A DNA stretch of 64,000 nt, from assembly GCA_000004985.1 (NCBI GenBank), contig GG738864.1. One strand, 5' to 3'. Source of the DNA: Naegleria gruberi (taxonomy: Eukaryota). Shown piece by piece: positions 4,618 to 57,490 of the stretch (positions are counted from its first letter, which is position 1; the number at the start of each line of letters is the position of its first letter). Both the position numbers and the translations under genes were made by a program. The notes beneath the pieces are model-generated. The model made no database searches, was not told the DNA's origin, and worked only from the letters and a program-made list of their open reading frames with translations.

Positions 4618-4691
4618 CTATGGCCATCATCCCGTCCGATTTGAGAAGTTAAATATTGTCGAGTACTGAGGTTGGAGACAACTTGGGAACC
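4618..4691 (+). pseudogene. Truncated 5S rRNA pseudogene, about 74 nt, with two internal deletions
   Basis: This segment aligns to the intact 5S copies at 50438-50555 and 35490-35607. It lacks the atcacgatgaatgcacctc and gccacatc segments and the 3' helix-I strand, and it has no T-run terminator. Confidence 0.55.
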
Positions 4692-4728
4692 TTTGCTAAT
4701 TGTAAAGTCAAAAAAAATACCCTCACTC

Positions 4729-34751: not shown

Positions 34752-35489
34752 GATTGTTGTGAGGTTTTTTTTCTTTGAAAGGTTCTCTGACTATGTTATT
34801 CGAATCATTTATGGTGATGAATTGGTACGAAACGTTCATTTAGCTATTTGATGGTTGAGTAGAGTTAGTCTTTTGGGTTTGAATCAGCAATGAATACTAT
34901 TGGATTGTTTGTTTTACAAAAAATGGGTGTTTCACTTGAACCTAATTGACTTCTATTTATGGAAACAAATTGTGTTCAAAATGCAAACCTTGACTGAATC
35001 AGAAAAGATGCAACTGCGTGTCTGTTTGAAATAATTTGGACAATTCAGCATAAAATACTATAACAGATCATACAACCTTACAATACTGCTAATTCGGTAT
35101 TTTAACGTGGTCAACTTGCACATTTTGCATTCTTGAAATTTACACTTGACATTTCGTAGAGTAACACTTCAATCAAAGAGTTGATAAGATGATAGATTAC
35201 ATTGTTACTTGTTAAAATATTTATGTTCTGAATATAGCTCTCAAGCCTCACTACACATTTTCTTCTCGTTGTATAAATTTTTATCTCTTTTATTGTACCC
35301 AAACTACATGTATTTGGAATGCTTATTTGATAGTTAATATTTTAGCAAGAGTTTATTTGCAACAAGTCATCTAATTGGATTAAATGAAAAGTGTGGACTA
35401 ACTTACTTATATCAATATTGACCATTGGATGACTAATATTTTATGCAATATACATTGTATTTGGTATTTGTTGCGGAGAAAAATCAAAA

Positions 35490-35607
35490 GACTACAGCAC
35501 CACAGGTTCCCAAGTTGTCTCCAACCTCAGTACTGATGTGGCTCGACGATACTTAACTTCTCAAATCGGACGGGATGAGGTGCATGAATCGTGATATGGC
35601 CGTAGCC
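35490..35607 (-). rRNA. 5S rRNA gene (118 nt)
   Basis: This is the reverse complement of the 50438-50555 copy. Helix I pairs ggctacggc with gctgtagtc. An oligo-T tract (ttttgattttt) follows the 3' end on the coding strand. The sequence matches canonical eukaryotic 5S, including GCCATA...CCCGTCCGATTTGAGAAGTTAAGC...GTACTGAGGTTGGAGACAACTTGGGAAC. Confidence 0.85.
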
Positions 35608-35799
35608 ATTCATTCTCTTAAATTGTTCAACCCTTGTTGTAAAATGGAACATTAGAAAGTTACAAAGTTGTCGACTTGTTGATTATCACATCATATTAAA
35701 TTGAACTCATTAGGGAAGTGATACAAGAATAGAAAATGTACACTATTCAATGAATAATTTATTTACAATAATTGAAAGAATCTATGATATTTTGCTAAC

Positions 35800-36169
35800 T
35801 TAACCACCCCTCAATCTCAAAACTAAATGCACAGTTGCATCCTTTTGAAGATTGTAATCACCAATAGTTCTTCCATCTTCCAATTGCTTACCGGCATAAA
35901 TCAATCGTTGTTGATCTGAAGGAATACCTTCCTTATCAAATATCTTTTGTTTCATATTCTTCAACAGTATCATTCGATTCCATTTCAATAGTGATTGTCT
36001 TTCCAGTTAAGGTTTTTACAAAAAGTTGCATTCCTCCTCTTAATCTTTGTTGATCTGGTGAAATTCCTTCCTTATCTTGTACTTTTCTTTTCACATTTTC
36101 AATTGAATCATTAGATTCAACCTCCAAAGTGATAGTTCTTCCAGTGAGTGTCTTGACAAATAATTGCAT
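35800..36169 (-). pseudogene. Degenerate polyubiquitin locus: two head-to-tail ubiquitin units, one internally deleted and one frameshifted
   Basis: Unit 1 reads [43 protein letters not shown] and then runs directly into RGG. Ub residues 43-73 are missing in frame. Unit 2 reads [26 protein letters not shown] single extra A in gaagaatatg then shifts the frame, so the remainder ([50 protein letters not shown]-stop) is only readable in the +1 frame. The locus also carries many substitutions relative to invariant ubiquitin. Confidence 0.55.
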
Positions 36170-36661
36170 TATGTTTGTTGTCTTGTTTTTCTTATTGTTT
36201 TTCTTGAATTCAAAACATATCCTTGCTTTTTATACTAAGTTTTGAGATGTATGTATTTTTAGAAGTAGTTCTTCTGCAAAGAAATTCTTTAAATGAACCG
36301 ATCGATTTTGTTTCTGGACACAAATTTGGTTCATGTTTTGTAATTATGTGCTATAGCTGTTCATACAATAATCAATTTTAACTTGTTGTTCGAATGAGTT
36401 TAATGCAATTTGACTCTTAATGATTTTGAATTTAAAAGGTGATTATTGGAAAAATACTAGCAAAATGGTTTGAGTTTAGCTGTTCATTACTAAAAACAAT
36501 GTTAACTTTTATGAAAAGATATTATATTAATATACCGTAGCCATTTATCCTTAATATAATGAATAATAATAAATTTGTTGAAAAATATCTTATTAATTTT
36601 ATTTTTATAAAAATAAAGGAATATAAGTAAAGATATTGTTGTTTGTCTTTCAATTGTTAAT

Positions 36662-36735
36662 TTAGACGGGAAGCCTGCCAGGAATATGGCGACCATCCCG
36701 CTACAGTCTTTGACTGAATGAACAGTGAAGGCAAG
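36662..36735 (+). repeat. Conserved 74-nt element X, copy 1. Candidate small ncRNA gene or SINE/MITE-like repeat core.
   Basis: The core is gacgggaagcctgccaggaatatggcgaccatcccgctacagtctttgactgaatgaacagtgaaggcaa. It matches the reverse complement of 50851-50925 with 4 mismatches in 74 nt. Weaker similarity extends about 40 nt into both flanks, including tttcaattRttaattt immediately upstream. A TATA-like tataaaaataaagg lies about 50 bp upstream. Confidence 0.45.
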
Positions 36736-38238
36736 AGTTCTGGACGAATCTTGTTGTGTTCAAATAACAGGTTGTTGAAGAATTTGATAAGGTTGACCAA
36801 CCTTCTATTTATTGAAAACCGACAAGTTAAAATTGCTTGATGCAAGTTTTGGTTTGATTTTTTCTGAATCAATTCTAAATTGAAACTTCATCTATTTCAA
36901 ACAAATTATTTTATTTACAATTTACTGAATTATTTACAAGTTAATTTACATCTTTTTCGATTTGGTAATCTTATTTGTGGTGGTTGATTGTTTAGCTCTC
37001 TTTTCAATTGAATTTTTCGAAGATCTTTTCACTGAAATTTGTTTACCATTTAAATTTGCGTGATGATAATCAATATTATGACGTCAATCTTTTAGATAAA
37101 TCAACTAGTTTAGATCTTGTTAGCTGGCATTTTGTTTTGTTGTAGATATATCATCATCCGATACCAGTTGATCTATTTATTTCCATGAAGATTTCCACTA
37201 ATTTTGTGATTCCGATTTTAGTGGATTTTCCACTCATCACAAGAAGTTTGAATTTTTCTATTAATATTTTGATGAAGGAAATTTAATGAAAATCAACAAA
37301 CAAAAGAAAATAACAACAATTAGAAAATGGTCTCAACAAGAAGAAATATGTATAATTCCTCCAATAACACTTCACAATTTAATTCCGAAATTTCTCTGGA
37401 TAACATTGTTGGTGGTACAAGAAGAAGAAATTTAATTGATTACAAAACATTGAATTCTATTGGAAGTGAATCAAGTAAAACTTCCAAATCTCAATCACAT
37501 AATACTTTAGAAATGAGAAACAAACAATTCAAACTGTGGTGAACTCCATTTAACTCAAAATTTTGTAAACCTAGGCAATCATTGTAAATAAACCCAAATG
37601 TAAATATTCAATAATGCACACAGTTGAGTTTTTTGACCCATTTTCTACGTTGAACTTCTGTTCAGTACACGTCCAACATAACTTTCAATGTTAATTATGT
37701 CAATGGTGTGTTTGCTCCATGTTCAACTATCTCAAAGAATTCAAATCATAAAAAAACAAACAACGACCATAATTCACTTTTCAAAAACCATGCATCTAGA
37801 AAGGTAAAAAAGGTTTGTTCGATTCATACTCTTTGCTTTCTTCATACTTACCTTGAAGGACATTTCAGTGATCATGCAGACTGAAATGTGAATCTGGAAA
37901 CTCTCCTCCTTGCACTCAGAGGATGAGAAGCCAGAATTTGGTCAATAATCAAAGTGGTTGTTGCCCTCCTTCTCAATTTTTTCCTGTGAGGATTCATCTG
38001 GTATGATTTCTCGCTCTGTTAAATAATAGAAATTTTGTGTGTGGGAATTTTGCTGCACCGAAGAATCTATTACCCTATAATTGTATCAAATTCCAAAAGC
38101 TCAAGATTTTCTAAATCAAATTGCAGCCATTCATTATCTTAAATTGTGAAACATGAATCAGTTCACCCTTGTTTCCCTCTCAATCTTATTAAAATATGAA
38201 ATATCAATGGTACAAGATTATTAAACCATAATATCCTC

Positions 38239-38320
38239 GTGCGGAGCGTGCAACATCAATTTATCCCAAGTCCGCTAAATGGCATATCAAAGCGTGCGCG
38301 GAAATTTGCTCTTCCAATCA
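38239..38320 (+). promoter_or_regulatory. GC-rich island with a duplicated AGCGTGC motif, 90-170 bp upstream of the NmrA-like gene
   Basis: The sequence is cctcgtgcggAGCGTGCaacatcaatttatcccaagtccgctaaatggcatatcaaAGCGTGCgcggaaatttgc. It stands out in an otherwise roughly 70% AT intergenic region. Confidence 0.2.
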
Positions 38321-38412
38321 TTAATTGATTAAATTTCACTTAAAATTCGAGTTCAGTTTATAAACTCAATTTTAAAAACAAAAAAATACAATCATACAAA
38401 ATCCTATCAACC

Positions 38413-44154: not shown

Positions 44155-44472
44155 ATGAAAAGTCAATTCGTGCATAGTATTGTAAATGTTAAGTTTTCTT
44201 TTGGGTTGCTTAACTCTTCAGATAAACTTAAATTCATAAGTGAAATGAAACAATTAACATCACTTGATATTTCTGACAATGAAATTGGTGTAGAAGGAGC
44301 CAAACTCATAAGTGGAATGAAATCATTAATATCACTTAGTATTGGTGATAATCAAATTGGTGTAGAAGGATCCAAATACATAAGTGAAATGAAACAATTA
44401 ACATCACTTAATATATATTACAATGAAATTGGTGTGGAAGGAGCCAAACTCATAAGTGAAATGAAACATTAA
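44155..44472 (+). CDS. Short RI-type leucine-rich-repeat protein or gene fragment (105 aa) built from three near-identical 72-bp DNA repeats
   Basis: ATG at 44155. The protein repeats ISEMKQLTSLDISDNEIGVEGAKL three times. The underlying DNA is a tandem repeat of about 72 bp spanning 44215-44470. Confidence 0.35.
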   Translation: MKSQFVHSIVNVKFSFGLLNSSDKLKFISEMKQLTSLDISDNEIGVEGAKLISGMKSLISLSIGDNQIGVEGSKYISEMKQLTSLNIYYNEIGVEGAKLISEMKH

Positions 44473-48024: not shown

Positions 48025-48698
48025 ATTTACCACAGACAACACTCTCACAATTCTCCCATCACACAACAAATCTAAAACTTCACCAACAACCAACACACCA
48101 AATTGTTAATAACTTGTGTACAGTACACTTCTAGGCCCCATCACTACAATTGATGATCACCTCTAGTTTCCAAACAAATAAAACAAAAAACAATTATTTA
48201 AATATTAATTTAATTATCATTCTCTTGTTGATTCTAAATTCCATGAGTTACTAATGAAGAACAAGTAACACTTTGAATATCAGAAGTAGTACTTATTTCA
48301 TCCTAGCTAGTCAAATATTGAATATTCATTATATTCTAATGAAGAATTTGGCAAGTTGTTTTCAATTGCAAAGGAAGATGTTGCACCATGCAATATTTGG
48401 TGTTTTTCATCAACAATTTTAGGTCATGGTTTCAATTTGGAACTACCAAGCCGGTCAATGTCAGATGTCCTGAACAAAAAAAAACATCATCTCTGTAATT
48501 TCCTTCAGTCATCATCACCCTCCTTCAGTGGTCAATCATCACATTATTCTGCAGTCACTCCTATTGATACAACAATATTCAATATTAAAAAAACATCTCC
48601 ACAGCATCCTCGTTTGTCATTTCCTCAAACTAAACCAAACTATTCAATACAACTCCCAACACTTTGTCAATAAGAATAAAAATTTCTAGAATTTGGAA

Positions 48699-50282: not shown

Positions 50283-50437
50283 CAATGTACAAAAATTAAC
50301 AAATATTTCAAACAAACTTTATTTCATTATTAAAAATCTTTCATTACAAAATTCAATTTTACTAGTATTGTCAAATTCGATATTTAAGAGCACGAATTTC
50401 TTGTTAGATTGATATTTCATATTTTAATACAACTGAT

Positions 50438-50555
50438 GGCTACGGCCATATCACGATGAATGCACCTCATCCCGTCCGATTTGAGAAGTTAAGCATCGTC
50501 GAGCCACATCAGTACTGAGGTTGGAGACAACTTGGGAACCTGTGGTGCTGTAGTC
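50438..50555 (+). rRNA. 5S rRNA gene (118 nt)
   Basis: The sequence runs ggctacggccatatcacgatgaatgcacctcatcccgtccgatttgagaagttaagcatcgtcgagccacatcagtactgaggttggagacaacttgggaacctgtggtgctgtagtc and is followed by a TTTTT Pol III terminator. Helix I is fully paired, including two G-U pairs. Confidence 0.9.
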
Positions 50556-50850
50556 TTTTTATCTGTTAGAGCATGATTCTTCTGGAATATGAAGAACAAT
50601 ATTAAAACATTGACTTGATATTTATCCTTATTATCTCTTCCTTTGTGAAAAATCATTTCTTGACTTACTGTCTAAAGATTTTGTTAATCGTAAACTATTT
50701 CAATGTTTGAAGACTCAAATTCGAAATTTTATCGTTTATTGATCAACCACAAGTTTCTCTTTCTAAATAGATTAAAATAAAAGGTGATAAATAGATGGTC
50801 AGGTAGCAAGCGTTTCTAAATAATAATTACTGAACCAACAATCAATAGAT

Positions 50851-50925
50851 TAGTTGCCTTCACTGTTCATACAGTCAAAGACTGTAGCGGGACTGTCGCT
50901 ATATTCCTGGCAGGCTTCCCGTCCA
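50851..50925 (-). repeat. Conserved 74-nt element X, copy 2, inverted relative to copy 1 and about 300 bp downstream of the 5S gene
   Basis: Reverse-complementing 50851-50925 gives gacgggaagcctgccaggaatatagcgacagtcccgctacagtctttgactgtatgaacagtgaaggcaa. The flanks show the same weak similarity seen around copy 1. The ttactgaaccaacaatc segment beside it recurs at 4541-4557, next to the 5S pseudogene. Confidence 0.45.
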
Positions 50926-51091
50926 AAATTAATAATTGAAATGGTAATGTGACAATAACAACCACCAAGATAACACACTTTCTGGTTAATCATGGATTGT
51001 CTGTTTATGCTTATTTCTTAAAATAAGTGAAACAAGTAAATATATCAATAATATGAACATTTATCTTTCCATTAACCTTTTCTTCCACTTG

Positions 51092-52313
51092 TATTGTAGT
51101 TTTCCAGAAACCATGACATAAATTTTTCAACACCAATCATTTTTCCATCCATGTTGATCGATTAAAATCCATCTAATCAATCTATTTTTTGATCAATCTA
51201 TCAAACAATCGATCATGATTCATTAACAATTTCAATCAGCTAATTATCAAAAGATTGTTGTTTGATTTCTTGTGATGTTTCAAAATAAAGCACTTCAAAA
51301 CACAAAAAGTTGTTTTTCCAAATTGCTTAAAGTCATGTGCCAAGCCAATCCTCCGATGTGGCATTTGAAAATAAATATGAATTTCTTATAATCCTTTCAG
51401 AGCTCAATGACTGAAAGTTGCCTCAACACTTTTCCAAGAATATGCCAAGTGCTCACTCTTGATTTTTGAAATTTGGGATATGGATATTGAAATATTACAT
51501 AAATGTTTGAGTAAATATTGAACTCCCCAAAGTCAGAGTGTTGGTTCTTGATTAAATAATTGCTTACACAAGTTTGGACGTTGTTGCTCCTGAACATGTG
51601 GTTTTGTTCAAAGAACACCTTATCAAGTTTGCTTTCATTCTCGCCCTTTATCATTAATTAAGGCACTCAATAATTCAAATCTTTTTTCAAGTGTTGTATT
51701 TTATCATGTCAAGTACTTGGGAAACTCGTTTGATGTAGTGGAAGATCCACTAGTAATTCAGTAAGTAACAAATCTATCTAATTTGTAACCCAGCATTTCT
51801 GAAAATGTCGAATTCATTGTAAAGAAATTAAACCACATTCAAACTTAATGAATTGTTCCTGATGTCATCCAGCTTGATATGGAATTAAGTAATACCAATA
51901 AGGTGATTTTCAAGGCACTCTATACTGACATCCAACCAAGGGTTGGTTCAAAATGAAAAAGGAGCAATTTGGAGAAGATTTTTCGAACCTTTGTGAAACA
52001 ATTCAAATAAGGGAGAAGGAAATCTGTGTCTCTAAAAAAATAATTGAAAAAACCAAAAAAAAGGCAAGAAGAAAATCAAACCTGAACTGGAAGAACAAAA
52101 GAAATCATCAAAATCAAAGTCTCAAGCTCAGTTCAATGAGGATTTTGAGATATAATGAAGAACATTGATAGATCGATCGATTGATCGATCAATTAATTGA
52201 TAAAATTCTATGTTTCATCCATTCAATCGATCATTTTCCATCTCGATCAATCATCGATCGGTAAAAAAATTCCATCGAACAATTTATGTCATGGTTTCTC
52301 GAAAACTACAATA
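51092..52313. mobile_element. Non-autonomous DNA-transposon-like element (about 1.22 kb) with 37-bp terminal inverted repeats, subterminal ATCGAT/TGATCA motif clusters and possible TA target-site duplication
   Basis: The left TIR is tattgtagttttccagaaaccatgacataaatttttc at 51092-51128. The right TIR is gaacaatttatgtcatggtttctcgaaaactacaata at 52278-52313, which is its reverse complement with 2 mismatches in 37. If the ends are set at ttgtag...ctacaa, both flanks are TA. Subterminal regions 51150-51240 and 52160-52290 are dense in the palindromes ATCGAT and TGATCA (gatcgatcgattgatcgatcaattaattga). The only internal ORF is 71 aa and Lys-rich, so no transposase is encoded. Confidence 0.5.
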
Positions 52314-52920
52314 TCTCTTTTTCATAGTTCTTCCACAAAAGTTCTGAAGGTCTGAATTAGTAGGAACCTATTTTACAGTTAATGAAGGAACCTGTAAAGT
52401 TGTTATTTCAACTTAGTTTCTTCAACAAGGTCTTCTGCTGTTATTACAAGAAAGGATTGTTAGTTAAGTAAAAAGGGGGAGAAACACAGAAGCTAAACAA
52501 AAAAGAGATGAACAGTTCCTGTTGTATTCACATAATGCAGTGATGGATCATTGTTAACATGATTAATTAACTCCGCTCTTTGTACTAATTCAATTCTAAC
52601 ATGCCTTATTTCATAATCAAGTCAATGACCTCTTTCAACAATTACAATACAGTGAAAAGGTTGTGAATGGCAATATATGAAAAATGAGATTGGCAGACCA
52701 TTTTTAACAGATCATATTTCAAAAAGGAAATACTGTAATAGATTGGAAAGGTCAACTCGAAACATGTCAGTGAGAAACATTGTAAAGTATACTATTCATC
52801 CATTAGTTTAATAAGCTAATTACCCGAACGTTTTCCAACAGACCAAAGGTGCTGCACTTGCAAACTAAAGCAATATTCAAAAACCTCATGTTGCAACCTT
52901 TCTTCTAAACACTCAAAAAA

Positions 52921-54573
52921 ATGAAATCAGCAACCGGCATTCTTTGCTTCATCTGCTTATTAACACTGCTCATTCTCAAAGCAGACTACACTCTCCAACA
53001 ATTCACATGTTTCGGCTTGGACCCAACTGACCTTAGCGTCTGTGGAGGAAACGGTTTTTGCACAGCTCAAGACACATGTGATTGTCAAGATCTTTCATAT
53101 GGTGGCTATATTCACTCTAACATCAATGGTACTCTCAATAGATTAGTCAAAATTGCAAATGCTCCAAGAAATGAACATCTCGTCCTCCAATTAGACGCCA
53201 ATCTCATCTTGTTTAGTGATACAGCAGGTTTACCTGATTGGGCATCCGGTACCTATTCTCCATTGAATTCAGATCGTTACATGAGGATTGATAATAGCAC
53301 TGGTGCTTTCACACTTCACAAACTTGATGGAACTGTCTATGCTACAGTCTCTTCTGGATGTAATGGTGGAATTGGTCCATTCAGATTGGTTGTGAGATCA
53401 GATAGAAATTTGGCAATATACGATTCTATTGGAAAGATCTGCTGGATTATTGACAAGTATCCACACATTGGTTCAGTCATGTATCATGGAGCCAAATGTG
53501 ATGTTCCAATTTGCTTTGATAAGAATGCAACTGAGGTATGCTCTGGAAGAGGTTATTGTAATGTTCCACATAATTGTACTTGTATGGAAGGTGCCTTTGG
53601 TTATGATTGTAGAAATTTCACATGCTTTGGACTTGCTATCAATGATACCTCTGTTTGTTCTGGACATGGTCAATGCAATAATTTGAATAATTGCACATGT
53701 AATGATGGTTATTTTGGATCAAAGTGTCAAGAATTCAACTGTAATGGAATTCATTATAAGGAATCAAGTGTTTGCAGTGGTAAAGGAGTTTGTTCTAGTC
53801 CTAATGTTTGTAATTGCACACAAGGTTATAGTGGAGCATATTGTCAAGAATATTATTGTGATGGAACTCTTTACAATGACCAAAATGTTTGTTCTGGACA
53901 TGGCAAATGTAATGCTCCAGATAGTTGCTCATGTTCTGCTGGTTATTCTGGTGCCACATGTCTAGATTATACATGTTATGGAATTCATTATGCAGATCAA
54001 ACAGTTTGTTCAGGAAGAGGTAAATGTATTGGTCCAGATGGTTGCACCTGTCCAACTGATTTCTCTGGAACATCATGTCAAGATTATTACTGTAATGGAA
54101 TTCATTACAAGGAATCAAATGTTTGTAATGGACGAGGTGTCTGCTCAGCACCAACTATTTGCAATTGCACACAAGGATACACTGGTACATATTGTCAAGA
54201 TTTCAACTGTAATGGAACTTATTACAGTGATGCAAAGGTTTGCTCTGGAAATGGTAAATGTAATGCTCCAGACAGTTGCTCATGTTCTGCTGGTTTCTCT
54301 GGAGCTACATGTCAAGATTTCTATTGTAATGGAATTCTTTCCAATGATGAAAAAGTTTGTTCAGGAAATGGAAAATGTGCATCTCCAAATAATTGTGTTT
54401 GCTCTCCTCAATTTAGAGGTGTCAGTTGTGAAACTAAAGTACCTTCTACTGTTGCTTCCTTGAGTGGAAATGTTATTGGAAAGGTCAATAGCTCAATTTC
54501 CATTAAGAAGGTTAGCACTCTTCAAATGATATTCATCTTGGCATGTGTAATGATTTGTGCCATCTTGTTTTAA
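52921..54573 (+). CDS. Secreted, probably GPI-anchored protein: signal peptide, bulb-type (B-) lectin domain and about ten tenascin/teneurin-type EGF repeats
   Basis: ATG at 52921 with signal peptide MKSATGILCFICLLTLLILKA. The B-lectin motifs are QLDANLILFSD and LVVRSDRNLAIYDSIGKICW. EGF repeats CxxGYxGxxCQxxxCNGxxYxxxxVCSGxGxCxxPxxCxC occur about ten times. The C-terminus has a Ser-rich omega region followed by a hydrophobic tail STLQMIFILACVMICAILF. Confidence 0.7.
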   Translation: MKSATGILCFICLLTLLILKADYTLQQFTCFGLDPTDLSVCGGNGFCTAQDTCDCQDLSYGGYIHSNINGTLNRLVKIANAPRNEHLVLQLDANLILFSDTAGLPDWASGTYSPLNSDRYMRIDNSTGAFTLHKLDGTVYATVSSGCNGGIGPFRLVVRSDRNLAIYDSIGKICWIIDKYPHIGSVMYHGAKCDVPICFDKNATEVCSGRGYCNVPHNCTCMEGAFGYDCRNFTCFGLAINDTSVCSGHGQCNNLNNCTCNDGYFGSKCQEFNCNGIHYKESSVCSGKGVCSSPNVCNCTQGYSGAYCQEYYCDGTLYNDQNVCSGHGKCNAPDSCSCSAGYSGATCLDYTCYGIHYADQTVCSGRGKCIGPDGCTCPTDFSGTSCQDYYCNGIHYKESNVCNGRGVCSAPTICNCTQGYTGTYCQDFNCNGTYYSDAKVCSGNGKCNAPDSCSCSAGFSGATCQDFYCNGILSNDEKVCSGNGKCASPNNCVCSPQFRGVSCETKVPSTVASLSGNVIGKVNSSISIKKVSTLQMIFILACVMICAILF

Positions 54574-54690
54574 CAAATTGAAAACCCTTTTCACATTCAA
54601 TATAAATTCAATTTTTTGTAAAATCAATAAATTGCAAGTTTAATTGAAAAAAGAATTTCTAATTTCCTCACTGTATGATACTAAATCTTA

Positions 54691-55064
54691 TTAAAAACTA
54701 GTCTTTTGTTGCTTGTATTTCAAACCTTCAGTTCCATCCAATAAAACATAAACTCCATCATCTGTCAAATTAAATGTAAAAACTTTTTCAAATCCAACTT
54801 CAGGTAAAACTAATTTCAATTCAATTTTATGAGCACGAGCAATGGAAGGGAGAGGAAGATCCAAAACAAGTTCCTTATCAACTTCTCCTGTGGAATCTTC
54901 AAAAACAAGCTCAAATTCACTTGAGGTTGAGTTGAGTGATTTGATGAAAATTTTCTAATAATTAGGATTTAAATTATTTGATGAATTTTGATGTGATTAC
55001 ATACTGCTGGATCTTCTTCACTGGCTGGGAGTTCCTTGACAAAGAGGTGGAGTTGTGTGGACAT
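54691..55064 (-). CDS. Small two-exon gene encoding a roughly 108-aa hypothetical protein
   Basis: Exon 1 is 55064..55005 (MSTQLHLFVKELPASEEDPA). The intron is 55004..54955 (GTATGT...aattattag, 50 nt). Exon 2 is 54954..54691 (KIFIKSLNSTSSEFELVFEDSTGEVDKELVLDLPLPSIARAHKIELKLVLPEVGFEKVFTFNLTDDGVYVLLDGTEGLKYKQQKTSF). I recognised no domain. Confidence 0.4.
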
Positions 55065-55381
55065 TTTTTTTTGTTTATTAATAAAAGATAATTAAGACAG
55101 TTGAAGGAATCTTTTTATGGATTGACATGTGTTAAAATTGGATGATCAATAAATATTTTAAATGTTTTGTAATGTTGGGCGCTCTGGTTATGTCATCTAC
55201 AGTTGCTTTACAATGAGGGTTTCATTACCATAGTACCTATCTGAAACTCCAATTCTAGTATGAATAATCAACAAGATTAAAGTACACTATATTATTCAAC
55301 AAGATTAGTGCACACTATTATTGGTATTTTACAATTTTATTTACATGATATTCGATTCGTTTACATTCGTTTATAATAAAT

Positions 55382-55648
55382 CTATTCTCTCTTAACCCAA
55401 TAGGTATGAGAAATTGGAGCAAAATCAACCTGAGTCACAATATCCTTATTTTCACCAGGTCTAGCACAATACTTTGATTCAAAAGCAAGAGTTTCAGGTG
55501 TGGCACGAGCTTCAACAAATGATTTACCTTGTTCAGCTTCTTGCCATTTCAAGTTGGCAACTGAACCAGCAGAGAGGATGGCCATTGCTGATAACCAAAC
55601 GTATGGCTTGTAGAAGAAGTATTGGAAACCAATTTTATGATAGGTCAT
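55382..55648 (-). CDS. Small hypothetical protein (88 aa) with one predicted TM helix
   Basis: ATG at 55648. The hydrophobic stretch is YVWLSAMAILSAGSV. The size and shape resemble small mitochondrial respiratory-chain or accessory subunits, but no specific match is supportable. Confidence 0.3.
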   Translation of the reverse strand: MTYHKIGFQYFFYKPYVWLSAMAILSAGSVANLKWQEAEQGKSFVEARATPETLAFESKYCARPGENKDIVTQVDFAPISHTYWVKRE

Positions 55649-56124
55649 TTTGGATTTTAATGATCAATTCGAAAGAGATCGAGATAATGTCGTTTTTTTT
55701 TAGAGTGGTGAAATAATGGAAAGTTGGCGAAACCAAAGAATTTAAAGTGATGGTTGGCAGGGAAACCGAAGCAAATTGAAGGAGAAAATATTTCCAAACG
55801 TCGACATATTTTAAAAACTACATGTAAGGAAGTCAGTTACAACAAATTGACATTTTCGACGTTGTAATGTCATTTTTCCAAATTAGCACCTGTCAGCGAA
55901 ATGTCATACAAAAACTGTAGATAACATTAATGTATGTGTTATTTTCAATTCTACAATCAATTGAAGATTTCATCCCTTGATCAAAAAAACAACTCAATTT
56001 CATTTTCAACAATCTCTATTGAGGATTTCAATATCCTAATGAAATATATTCTTCGATCTTTCCTCTTCTTCTTGAAAGATTGCATGAATAGTTCAATTAT
56101 TTACCATAGTTGACTTTACAATTC

Positions 56125-57408
56125 ATGAACAGAAATATTACTCCACTCAAAAAAATGAATCAAGATCAAAATGTACTGCTATATGATAATTTTCCCTTCC
56201 ACCGAAAAATATTAAACACCACCATCACAACATGCCATTCTCGGATCATGATTAACAATTCACTTTATATGTTCCAACTCATTAAAGGTGAAAATATGAT
56301 CAAGGTTTCTAGGGTGTCTTTTCTGGGTGAGGGTTTGGAGTATAGAATTTACGAATATCAGAATGTGAGAATATACAATGAGGATGATGCTGATGAAAAT
56401 TCACTTGTAGTTTTAACATTTATTGAAATTGGAGAATTGAATGGTTATTTCTACATGTTTTCCGAATCTGAAGGAAGTGGCAGGAATTTAGAACAGGTTC
56501 ATAGGTTGAAAATTATTGAAGAGAATAATGCTTCTTCGATTCAAGTTGAGAGAATTTATAAGAGTTTTGAAACTTCGTATGTGAGAATTCTGAGTCCATT
56601 ATTAGCAGATAGAGAGAGGAATTGTTTTTACTGGTTTGGTGGATATAGGATTAGAAAATCAACCAGTTTGAAGGATTGTATCAAGTTTAATGTGGAAACG
56701 TGTGAATTTGAATTTTTGACAAATTTTCAAATGGGATTTGTTTTACATTCTCAATCTTCATTGTTTTGGAAGAATAGATATGTCATTGTATTTGGAGGTT
56801 GGATCACTTCTTGTTTTACAACAGCCAATATTTATGCATTTGATGTTGAGAATAGAAATTGGTATTCAATTTATTGTATTGATGACACAGATGAGGAGGT
56901 AATACCAAAAATTTTGCCTAGATATAATTCTGGAATGGTATTGGTTTCTAATAGGTGGGCCAGTAAATTTAATGCAACTATTCCATCAAATGATGATATG
57001 GATACATTATTCATTTATGGAGGACATATTGATTATATGGATATAACACGAGATACACATGAGGTATTGTTATTTCACTTGGACGAGTCGCTATTCCAAC
57101 TTGGAGAAGTGATTACAGAAACTCATATACCATTTAGTTTGACCAATTATTGTAAAGATTATTGGGAAAAGAAATTGAGCGAAACTGAATTTAATTTATT
57201 TAAGGATAATTTCAAGATTCTTCCTACCACTAATGTAAGCACCATTTATAACTTTAAATGTCATACTGGGAAGGAGAGATTGTACATTCTCAATGGATAC
57301 GACAAAACTAGTATATCAAAATTAGATTTGTGTGATATGAGATCTTTGTTTAATTCGAATTTATTGAAATTTTCACATTATTGGGATGTTCAATTTTCAT
57401 TTTTATAA
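56125..57408 (+). CDS. Putative Kelch-type beta-propeller protein (about 427 aa)
   Basis: The first ATG is at 56125. The ORF-track start at 56110 is a TTG. There are repeated GG...W...Y-type blades, for example FWKNRYVIVFGGWITSCFTTANIYAFDVENRNWY, LFIYGGHIDYMD and RNCFYWFGGYRI. Confidence 0.4.
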   Translation: MNRNITPLKKMNQDQNVLLYDNFPFHRKILNTTITTCHSRIMINNSLYMFQLIKGENMIKVSRVSFLGEGLEYRIYEYQNVRIYNEDDADENSLVVLTFIEIGELNGYFYMFSESEGSGRNLEQVHRLKIIEENNASSIQVERIYKSFETSYVRILSPLLADRERNCFYWFGGYRIRKSTSLKDCIKFNVETCEFEFLTNFQMGFVLHSQSSLFWKNRYVIVFGGWITSCFTTANIYAFDVENRNWYSIYCIDDTDEEVIPKILPRYNSGMVLVSNRWASKFNATIPSNDDMDTLFIYGGHIDYMDITRDTHEVLLFHLDESLFQLGEVITETHIPFSLTNYCKDYWEKKLSETEFNLFKDNFKILPTTNVSTIYNFKCHTGKERLYILNGYDKTSISKLDLCDMRSLFNSNLLKFSHYWDVQFSFL

Positions 57409-57490
57409 TATTCTGGTATTTATTTCAATGAAATTACTAAATAAATTGGAATCTTAATTTAAATTCCACAAATTCCAATTCAACTTTAGA

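Follow-up and report, generated by a model that had tools for sequence, protein, structure and literature searches.

Non-autonomous elements bounded by terminal inverted repeats (TIRs) are commonplace in eukaryotes. The ends of Tc1/mariner/pogo elements commonly start with a CAG-type sequence, Kolobok and piggyBac elements require TTAA duplications, the Kolobok termini being of the type 5'-RR...YY-3', and MITEs are usually under about 800 bp in size and fairly uniform, with a copy number that is moderate to high. Tc1/mariner elements less typically have many short subterminal repeats than do hAT, CACTA, Mutator and P elements. The transposon content of Naegleria gruberi is low according to published surveys: repeats have been put at 5.1% (PMC9928731) and classified transposons at 0.28% (bioRxiv 10.64898/2026.06.24.734286), and only a small fraction of the repeats has been reported as classifiable (PMC12344493). 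A MuDR-type element with 9-bp target-site duplications (TSDs) has been described in N. gruberi (PMC3164196), and Kolobok elements have been reported in Naegleria (PMC9587614). In the literature searched, the 2010 genome paper apart, we found no description of the element presented here, nor of any Naegleria Tc1/mariner element.

The element is located in a 64-kb stretch of DNA that was analysed as a whole and is called the window below. The EF-hand ORF just left of the element has a fully identical (100%) counterpart among the proteins of Naegleria gruberi, and the GH116 ORF of the window shows 53% identity to N. lovaniensis and 99% to a metagenome protein; these matches indicate that the window is N. 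gruberi nuclear DNA, and an origin from Trichomonas or a ciliate, which the base composition had suggested, was discarded on account of the EF-hand and N. lovaniensis matches. It has 29-36% GC, is densely filled with long ORFs and carries two 5S rRNA genes (50438-50556, plus strand; 35489-35607, minus strand) and three tRNA genes. The element itself measures 1218 bp between two flanking TAs, or 1222 bp with the TAs counted. Given its sharp-edged TIRs, the motif arrays at both ends, the non-coding interior and the TA on both sides, we consider it to be probably a cut-and-paste DNA transposon of the N. gruberi nuclear genome, TIR-bounded and non-autonomous, or else the remains of such an element. 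An initial annotation had interpreted the same segment as a candidate Tc1/mariner-type MITE. The anatomy on which it was based (TIR, TA, arrays and lack of coding) stands, but neither label is established, and in the case of MITE the length of 1218-1222 bp exceeds the usual size of such elements.

A 37-bp inverted repeat with 35 of 37 identical positions had been annotated at the ends, and direct recheck returned the same figures for 51092-51128 (TATTGTAGTTTTCCAGAAACCATGACATAAATTTTTC) against the reverse complement of 52277-52313 (TATTGTAGTTTTCGAGAAACCATGACATAAATTGTTC). Counted from inside the TAs, the left TIR (TTGTAGTTTTCCAGAAACCATGACATAAATTTTTC) occupies 51094-51128 on the plus strand, with weaker similarity on to about 51161, and pairs with the right TIR at 52277-52311 on the minus strand (reverse complement TTGTAGTTTTCGAGAAACCATGACATAAATTGTTC). 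The 31-nt TIR core is found at two sites in the 64-kb window, both of them ends of the element, with none expected from 100 dinucleotide-preserving shuffles. By blastn against the window the inverted repeat reaches a length of 72 nt, with 82% identity (E=4e-11), and an inverted-repeat search gave arms of 62 nt at 77% identity. Nowhere else in the window is there an inverted repeat of this length whose arms lie within 8 kb of each other, and in strength it surpasses all others by a wide margin. The same blastn comparison revealed neither an IR/DR-type internal copy of the TIR within the element nor a second copy of the element in the window. A 30-nt TIR-like piece at 48405-48434 resembles the right TIR only (GAAACCATGAC.TAAAATTGTT), and one of 100 shuffles matches its score; it may be a solo-TIR relic or a chance resemblance, and is marginal in either case.

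With the TA counted, the two arms agree at 32 of the 33 outermost positions (97%), and in the 29 nt that follow their identity drops abruptly to about 55%. Such a step would be expected of ends kept by transposase recognition, rather than of an evenly decaying inverted duplication. The latter is the origin to be assumed if there were no mobile element at all, the locus then being single-copy, without a history of transposition, and its two ends the product of such a duplication at the site, perhaps around a microsatellite of the (GATC)n type. The right subterminal block is indeed partly a degenerate tetranucleotide repeat, the likeness of the two subterminal regions is one of motif composition only (see below), and no second TIR-bearing copy was found in any collection searched. 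However, these collections exclude the host genome, so that the negative results carry little weight, and the combination of TIR, end arrays, non-coding interior and TA is how non-autonomous DNA transposons are normally built. Together with the sharp step in identity, this leads us to regard a local inverted duplication as rather unlikely.

When the ends are placed at TTGTAG...CTACAA, TA can be read in the sequence on both flanks, as the initial annotation had stated: at 51092-51093 on the left, where it is a candidate TSD or the outermost pair of the TIR, and at 52312-52313 on the right, outside the CTACAA end. At random positions, the two sides share a dinucleotide in 8% of cases, and in 0.4% TA is the dinucleotide shared. 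Because TA is its own reverse complement, the pair is ambiguous evidence and a weak sign of duplication, as it may be a mere 2-bp extension of the inverted repeat. Under a TA duplication, the pre-insertion site would read ...CCACTTGTATCTCTT... with a single TA. Direct repeats of 3, 4 or 8 bp touching the TIR were looked for in the sequence, and none was present at any plausible end. The flanking 8-mers differ (TCCACTTG vs TCTCTTTT, CACTTGTA vs TATCTCTT), which leaves no 8-bp duplication of the hAT type; the TTAA that piggyBac or Kolobok insertion would have left is absent from both boundaries; and in place of a 3-bp TWA duplication of the PIF/Harbinger type the flanks read GTA/TAT or TAT/ATA, depending on the boundary chosen, without a direct repeat. 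Within the transposon reading, a TA-targeting element of the Tc1/mariner/pogo type leads solely because TA is the only direct repeat touching the ends. We propose this assignment tentatively, as one that falls somewhat short of probable, with the remainder going to another or an unclassified superfamily.

The element could also be a TIR transposon from outside Tc1/mariner, in which case the TA would belong to the TIR and the true duplication would be different or eroded (e.g., Mutator-like, of 9 bp). Such an element would still fall under the transposon reading, but would contradict the family call of the initial annotation. The subterminal arrays fit the habit of hAT, CACTA, Mutator and P elements, and a 9-nt direct repeat, TTCTTCCAC, is present in both flanks (51080-51088 and 52328-52336), while a shared 9-mer is found in only 1.5% of comparable 40-bp flank pairs of the window. 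The 9-bp TSDs of the MuDR-type element reported in N. gruberi (PMC3164196) point in the same direction. However, neither copy of TTCTTCCAC is at a TIR tip: the two stand at unequal distances from the TA, 3 nt outside it on the left and 14 nt on the right, and ends drawn at these copies would no longer be mutual inverted repeats. A Mutator-like 9-bp duplication abutting the TIRs is thus not seen at this locus, nor is a repeat of the hAT (8-bp), PIF/Harbinger (TWA) or piggyBac/Kolobok (TTAA) type at any plausible TIR start. We consider another superfamily unlikely, with an appreciable chance left to it, and retain a TA-targeting element as the leading assignment.

Inside the TIRs, each end shows a strong enrichment of short palindromic motifs, which begins about equally far from the tip on the left and on the right. 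The left subterminal block (51154-51222) contains two ATCGAT, one TGATCA and three GATC, together with ATCAATCTAT-type short motifs, and the right one (52164-52262) five ATCGAT, seven GATC and a degenerate (GATC)n tract, which TRF reported with period 4 at 52167-52190. Of all sites in the window, 7/17 in the case of ATCGAT and 6/11 in the case of TCGATC fall in these two blocks, and the GATC density of the whole 64 kb, taken in 200-bp windows, peaks at the right end of the element. The palindrome clusters that had been annotated at the ends are therefore upheld for ATCGAT but not for TGATCA, which has a single site in the element (51190). In the same way, the mutual resemblance noted for the two blocks extends to shared motifs but not to collinear similarity. 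As block against block gives the same score whether or not one of them is inverted, and this score does not exceed the highest one from random genomic windows, their likeness reflects common motif content instead of collinear homology.

No Pfam domain was matched by any of the six frames of the element at E up to 1, in agreement with the annotated absence of transposase coding. The longest ORF has 85 aa (51397-51654, minus strand), so that the 71-aa ORF (51953-52168, plus strand) exists and is rich in Lys (18%), as had been described, but is not the only one. Pfam searches with both ORFs gave no match at E up to 10. The codon usage of the 71-aa ORF is compatible with coding, the ORF being short and unsupported, and the codon-usage score of the 85-aa ORF falls short of the coding-window mean by about 2.8 SD. 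This low score, the absence of a family match and an even distribution of mismatches over codon phases (see below) lead us to judge the 85-aa ORF as non-coding. With a longest ORF of this size and no Pfam match, the element shares with MITEs the lack of coding capacity.

When the 85-aa ORF was searched exhaustively with HMMER, one significant match emerged, P0011 (E=1.7e-11), a 126-codon open frame at positions 86-466 of a 580-bp ENA metagenome contig (ERZ4903137:k141_3179309; here L029). The homologous segment of the element is the minus strand of 51377-51712, and the alignment contains indels of 1, 3, 8, 11, 20 and 121 nt; identity to the contig is 76% by blastn counting gaps and 82% over 336 aligned columns. 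The mismatches are distributed over the three codon phases without bias (12/14/14) and the indels include non-triplet lengths, so that the interior is non-coding and has a diverged relative elsewhere. L029 could be a second member of the repeat family, but it could also be the orthologous intergenic region of a sibling species, which would count against the transposon reading; the contig lies entirely within the interior of the element, and hence neither ends nor flanks are visible in it. P0011 forms a singleton cluster, and no relative of any significance was found in Pfam or PDB. Its frame is long for AT-rich non-coding DNA, which may reflect a selection bias, only called ORFs being searchable. 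A second match, the 662-aa tandem-repeat ORF P0012 (E=7.6e-4), was judged spurious, as the sum of many weak repeated stretches.

Several other searches outside the window bear on the question of further copies. A scan of the JGI/ENA metagenomes with the TIR pattern returned nothing, and the 24 matches from a scan with a TIR 18-mer were all attributed to chance by flank comparison. In IMG/VR and GTDB the TIR had either no match or chance matches without extension into the TIR, and a conserved interior 35-mer had no match in either collection. No match was found between the element and phages by blastn. A concatenated six-frame query also gave no match against 5.8 billion proteins, a weak negative, the same search having missed P0011. 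At the related loci L003 and L001, the former showed neither the TIR pattern nor related inverted repeats, and the latter neither TIR fragments nor motif clusters. The chance-level TIR matches in metagenome, viral and prokaryotic collections count against the transposon reading, as do the single copy in the 64-kb window and the lack of a transposase domain in the scanned window ORFs of at least 150 aa, among which there is no autonomous partner. The low transposon content published for N. gruberi also counts against it; the DNA transposons described there, MuDR and Kolobok among them, and the many repeats left unclassified speak for it (PMC3164196, PMC9587614, PMC12344493).

The gap between ORFs of at least 120 aa in which the element is located (50283-52920) spans 2.64 kb. 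It had been taken for the longest gene-free interval of the window, a place that belongs to the gap at 34752-38412 (3.66 kb), which contains a 5S gene and ubiquitin-like ORF pieces. To the right, the start of an EGF-repeat gene (52921) follows 608 bp after the element; to the left, an 88-nt unit lies 150 nt and a 5S rRNA gene 535 nt away. The genes for the EF-hand protein and a 2',5'-RNA-ligase are separated by about 100-340 bp in N. lovaniensis (L030 11761-11864) and in L003 (11766-12105), a Logan contig from another relative, whereas the same two genes are 7.2 kb apart in the N. gruberi window (50283-57490). As the 7.2-kb block, which contains the TIR element along with the 88-nt unit and the genes for 5S rRNA, the EGF-repeat protein and a kelch protein, is missing between the same genes in both relatives, the element sits in lineage-specific DNA, a point in favour of the transposon reading. 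The genes neighbouring the element in this block are also missing from the relatives, and for this reason their locus does not represent a strict empty site.

A number of other features were observed in the window. The 88-nt unit is present twice, at 50854-50941 (plus strand) and 36648-36734 (minus strand), with 92% identity, sharp borders and unrelated flanks. Its fold is better than those of 200/200 shuffles (z=-3.2), and it matches no Rfam family; it could be a small RNA gene candidate or a mini-repeat. In addition to the two 5S rRNA genes, a degenerate 5S fragment with internal deletions was found at 4620-4695 (plus strand), 83% identical to the 5S gene at 50.4 kb and below the Rfam threshold. 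A 5S-linked repeat unit was ruled out by the unrelated flanks of the three 5S copies. A 31-nt match of 90% identity joins 50399-50429 (plus strand), just upstream of the 5S gene at 50.4 kb, to 38187-38217 (minus strand), the second copy falling in the other large ORF-free gap. Beside the second 5S gene, two overlapping ubiquitin-like ORF pieces in different frames (35800-36169, minus strand) could represent a polyubiquitin gene broken by a frameshift or an intron. Finally, in-frame tandem repeats were identified in the EGF-repeat gene (53653-54420, 117-nt period) and in an LRR-like stretch (44230-44466, 72-nt period).

The position of the element 608 bp upstream of the EGF-repeat gene and 150 nt from the conserved 88-nt candidate small RNA would also suit a functional host locus, either an inverted-repeat transcript feeding small RNAs or a cis-regulatory module of the EGF-repeat gene with arrays for an ATCGAT-binding factor. 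Partial conservation of the interior (82%) in another sample and weak, sub-threshold hairpin-type Rfam matches in the right block would be in line with such a function. However, these Rfam matches are far under the gathering scores (E 0.28-0.56), the conservation is rich in indels, as for neutral DNA, and the whole block is missing at the syntenic position in two relatives, all of which makes a host function highly improbable in our view. A more far-reaching form of the transposon reading would see in the element a TIR family of heteroloboseans that has not been described before and of which no other member has been recognised. Its transposase would recognise the internal ATCGAT/GATC palindrome arrays, and the family might prefer gene-poor pockets with Pol III-type genes, such as the one here with the 5S gene and the 88-nt unit. 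As a whole this combination is speculative, and we give it little credence.

If the element is a non-autonomous transposon, as we favour, a transposase encoded elsewhere in the genome would bind the TIRs of about 35 bp, and the same enzyme may also bind the ATCGAT/GATC-type arrays 60-150 bp inside each end. It would then pair the two ends, excise the 1.2-kb segment and reinsert it, most likely at a TA that is duplicated in the process, as expected for an IS630-Tc1-mariner (ITm)-like element. That the element is mobile, exists in multiple copies and has truly duplicated a TA is only inferred, as is the identity of its transposase. The finding is an ordinary one, unsurprising to a specialist, and touches no long-standing open question. 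If confirmed, it would enlarge by one family the repeat catalogue of N. gruberi, a key free-living discoban model in which this catalogue is small and for the most part unclassified, and the defined TIR and candidate binding-site arrays would offer a handle on the cognate transposase and possibly on genetic tools for Naegleria.

Compared with the described systems, the element shares with Kolobok and piggyBac the general form of a TIR-bounded cut-and-paste transposon, but both the TTAA duplication and the 5'-RR...YY-3' termini are missing here. Non-autonomous derivatives of hAT, Mutator and CACTA elements (Ds-like and Mu-like deletion derivatives) are closer in that they have TIRs with many short subterminal motifs at both ends and a non-coding interior, which in our case shows a 121-nt indel relative to L029; they differ in the 8-, 9- or 3-bp repeats abutting their TIRs, of which there is none here, the 9-nt one being asymmetrically offset. 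In comparison with non-autonomous ITm elements, such as pogo-like and Stowaway-like MITEs, the element is large (1.2 kb, above the typical MITE size), starts with TTGTAG and not with a CAG-type terminus, has arrays of short subterminal palindromes where those elements have a binding site or two at each end, and lacks an IR/DR-type internal TIR repeat, and its TA duplication is only a candidate. What it has in common with these ITm elements are TIRs of tens of bp with TA outside both ends, the absence of a transposase gene and an AT-rich intergenic location.
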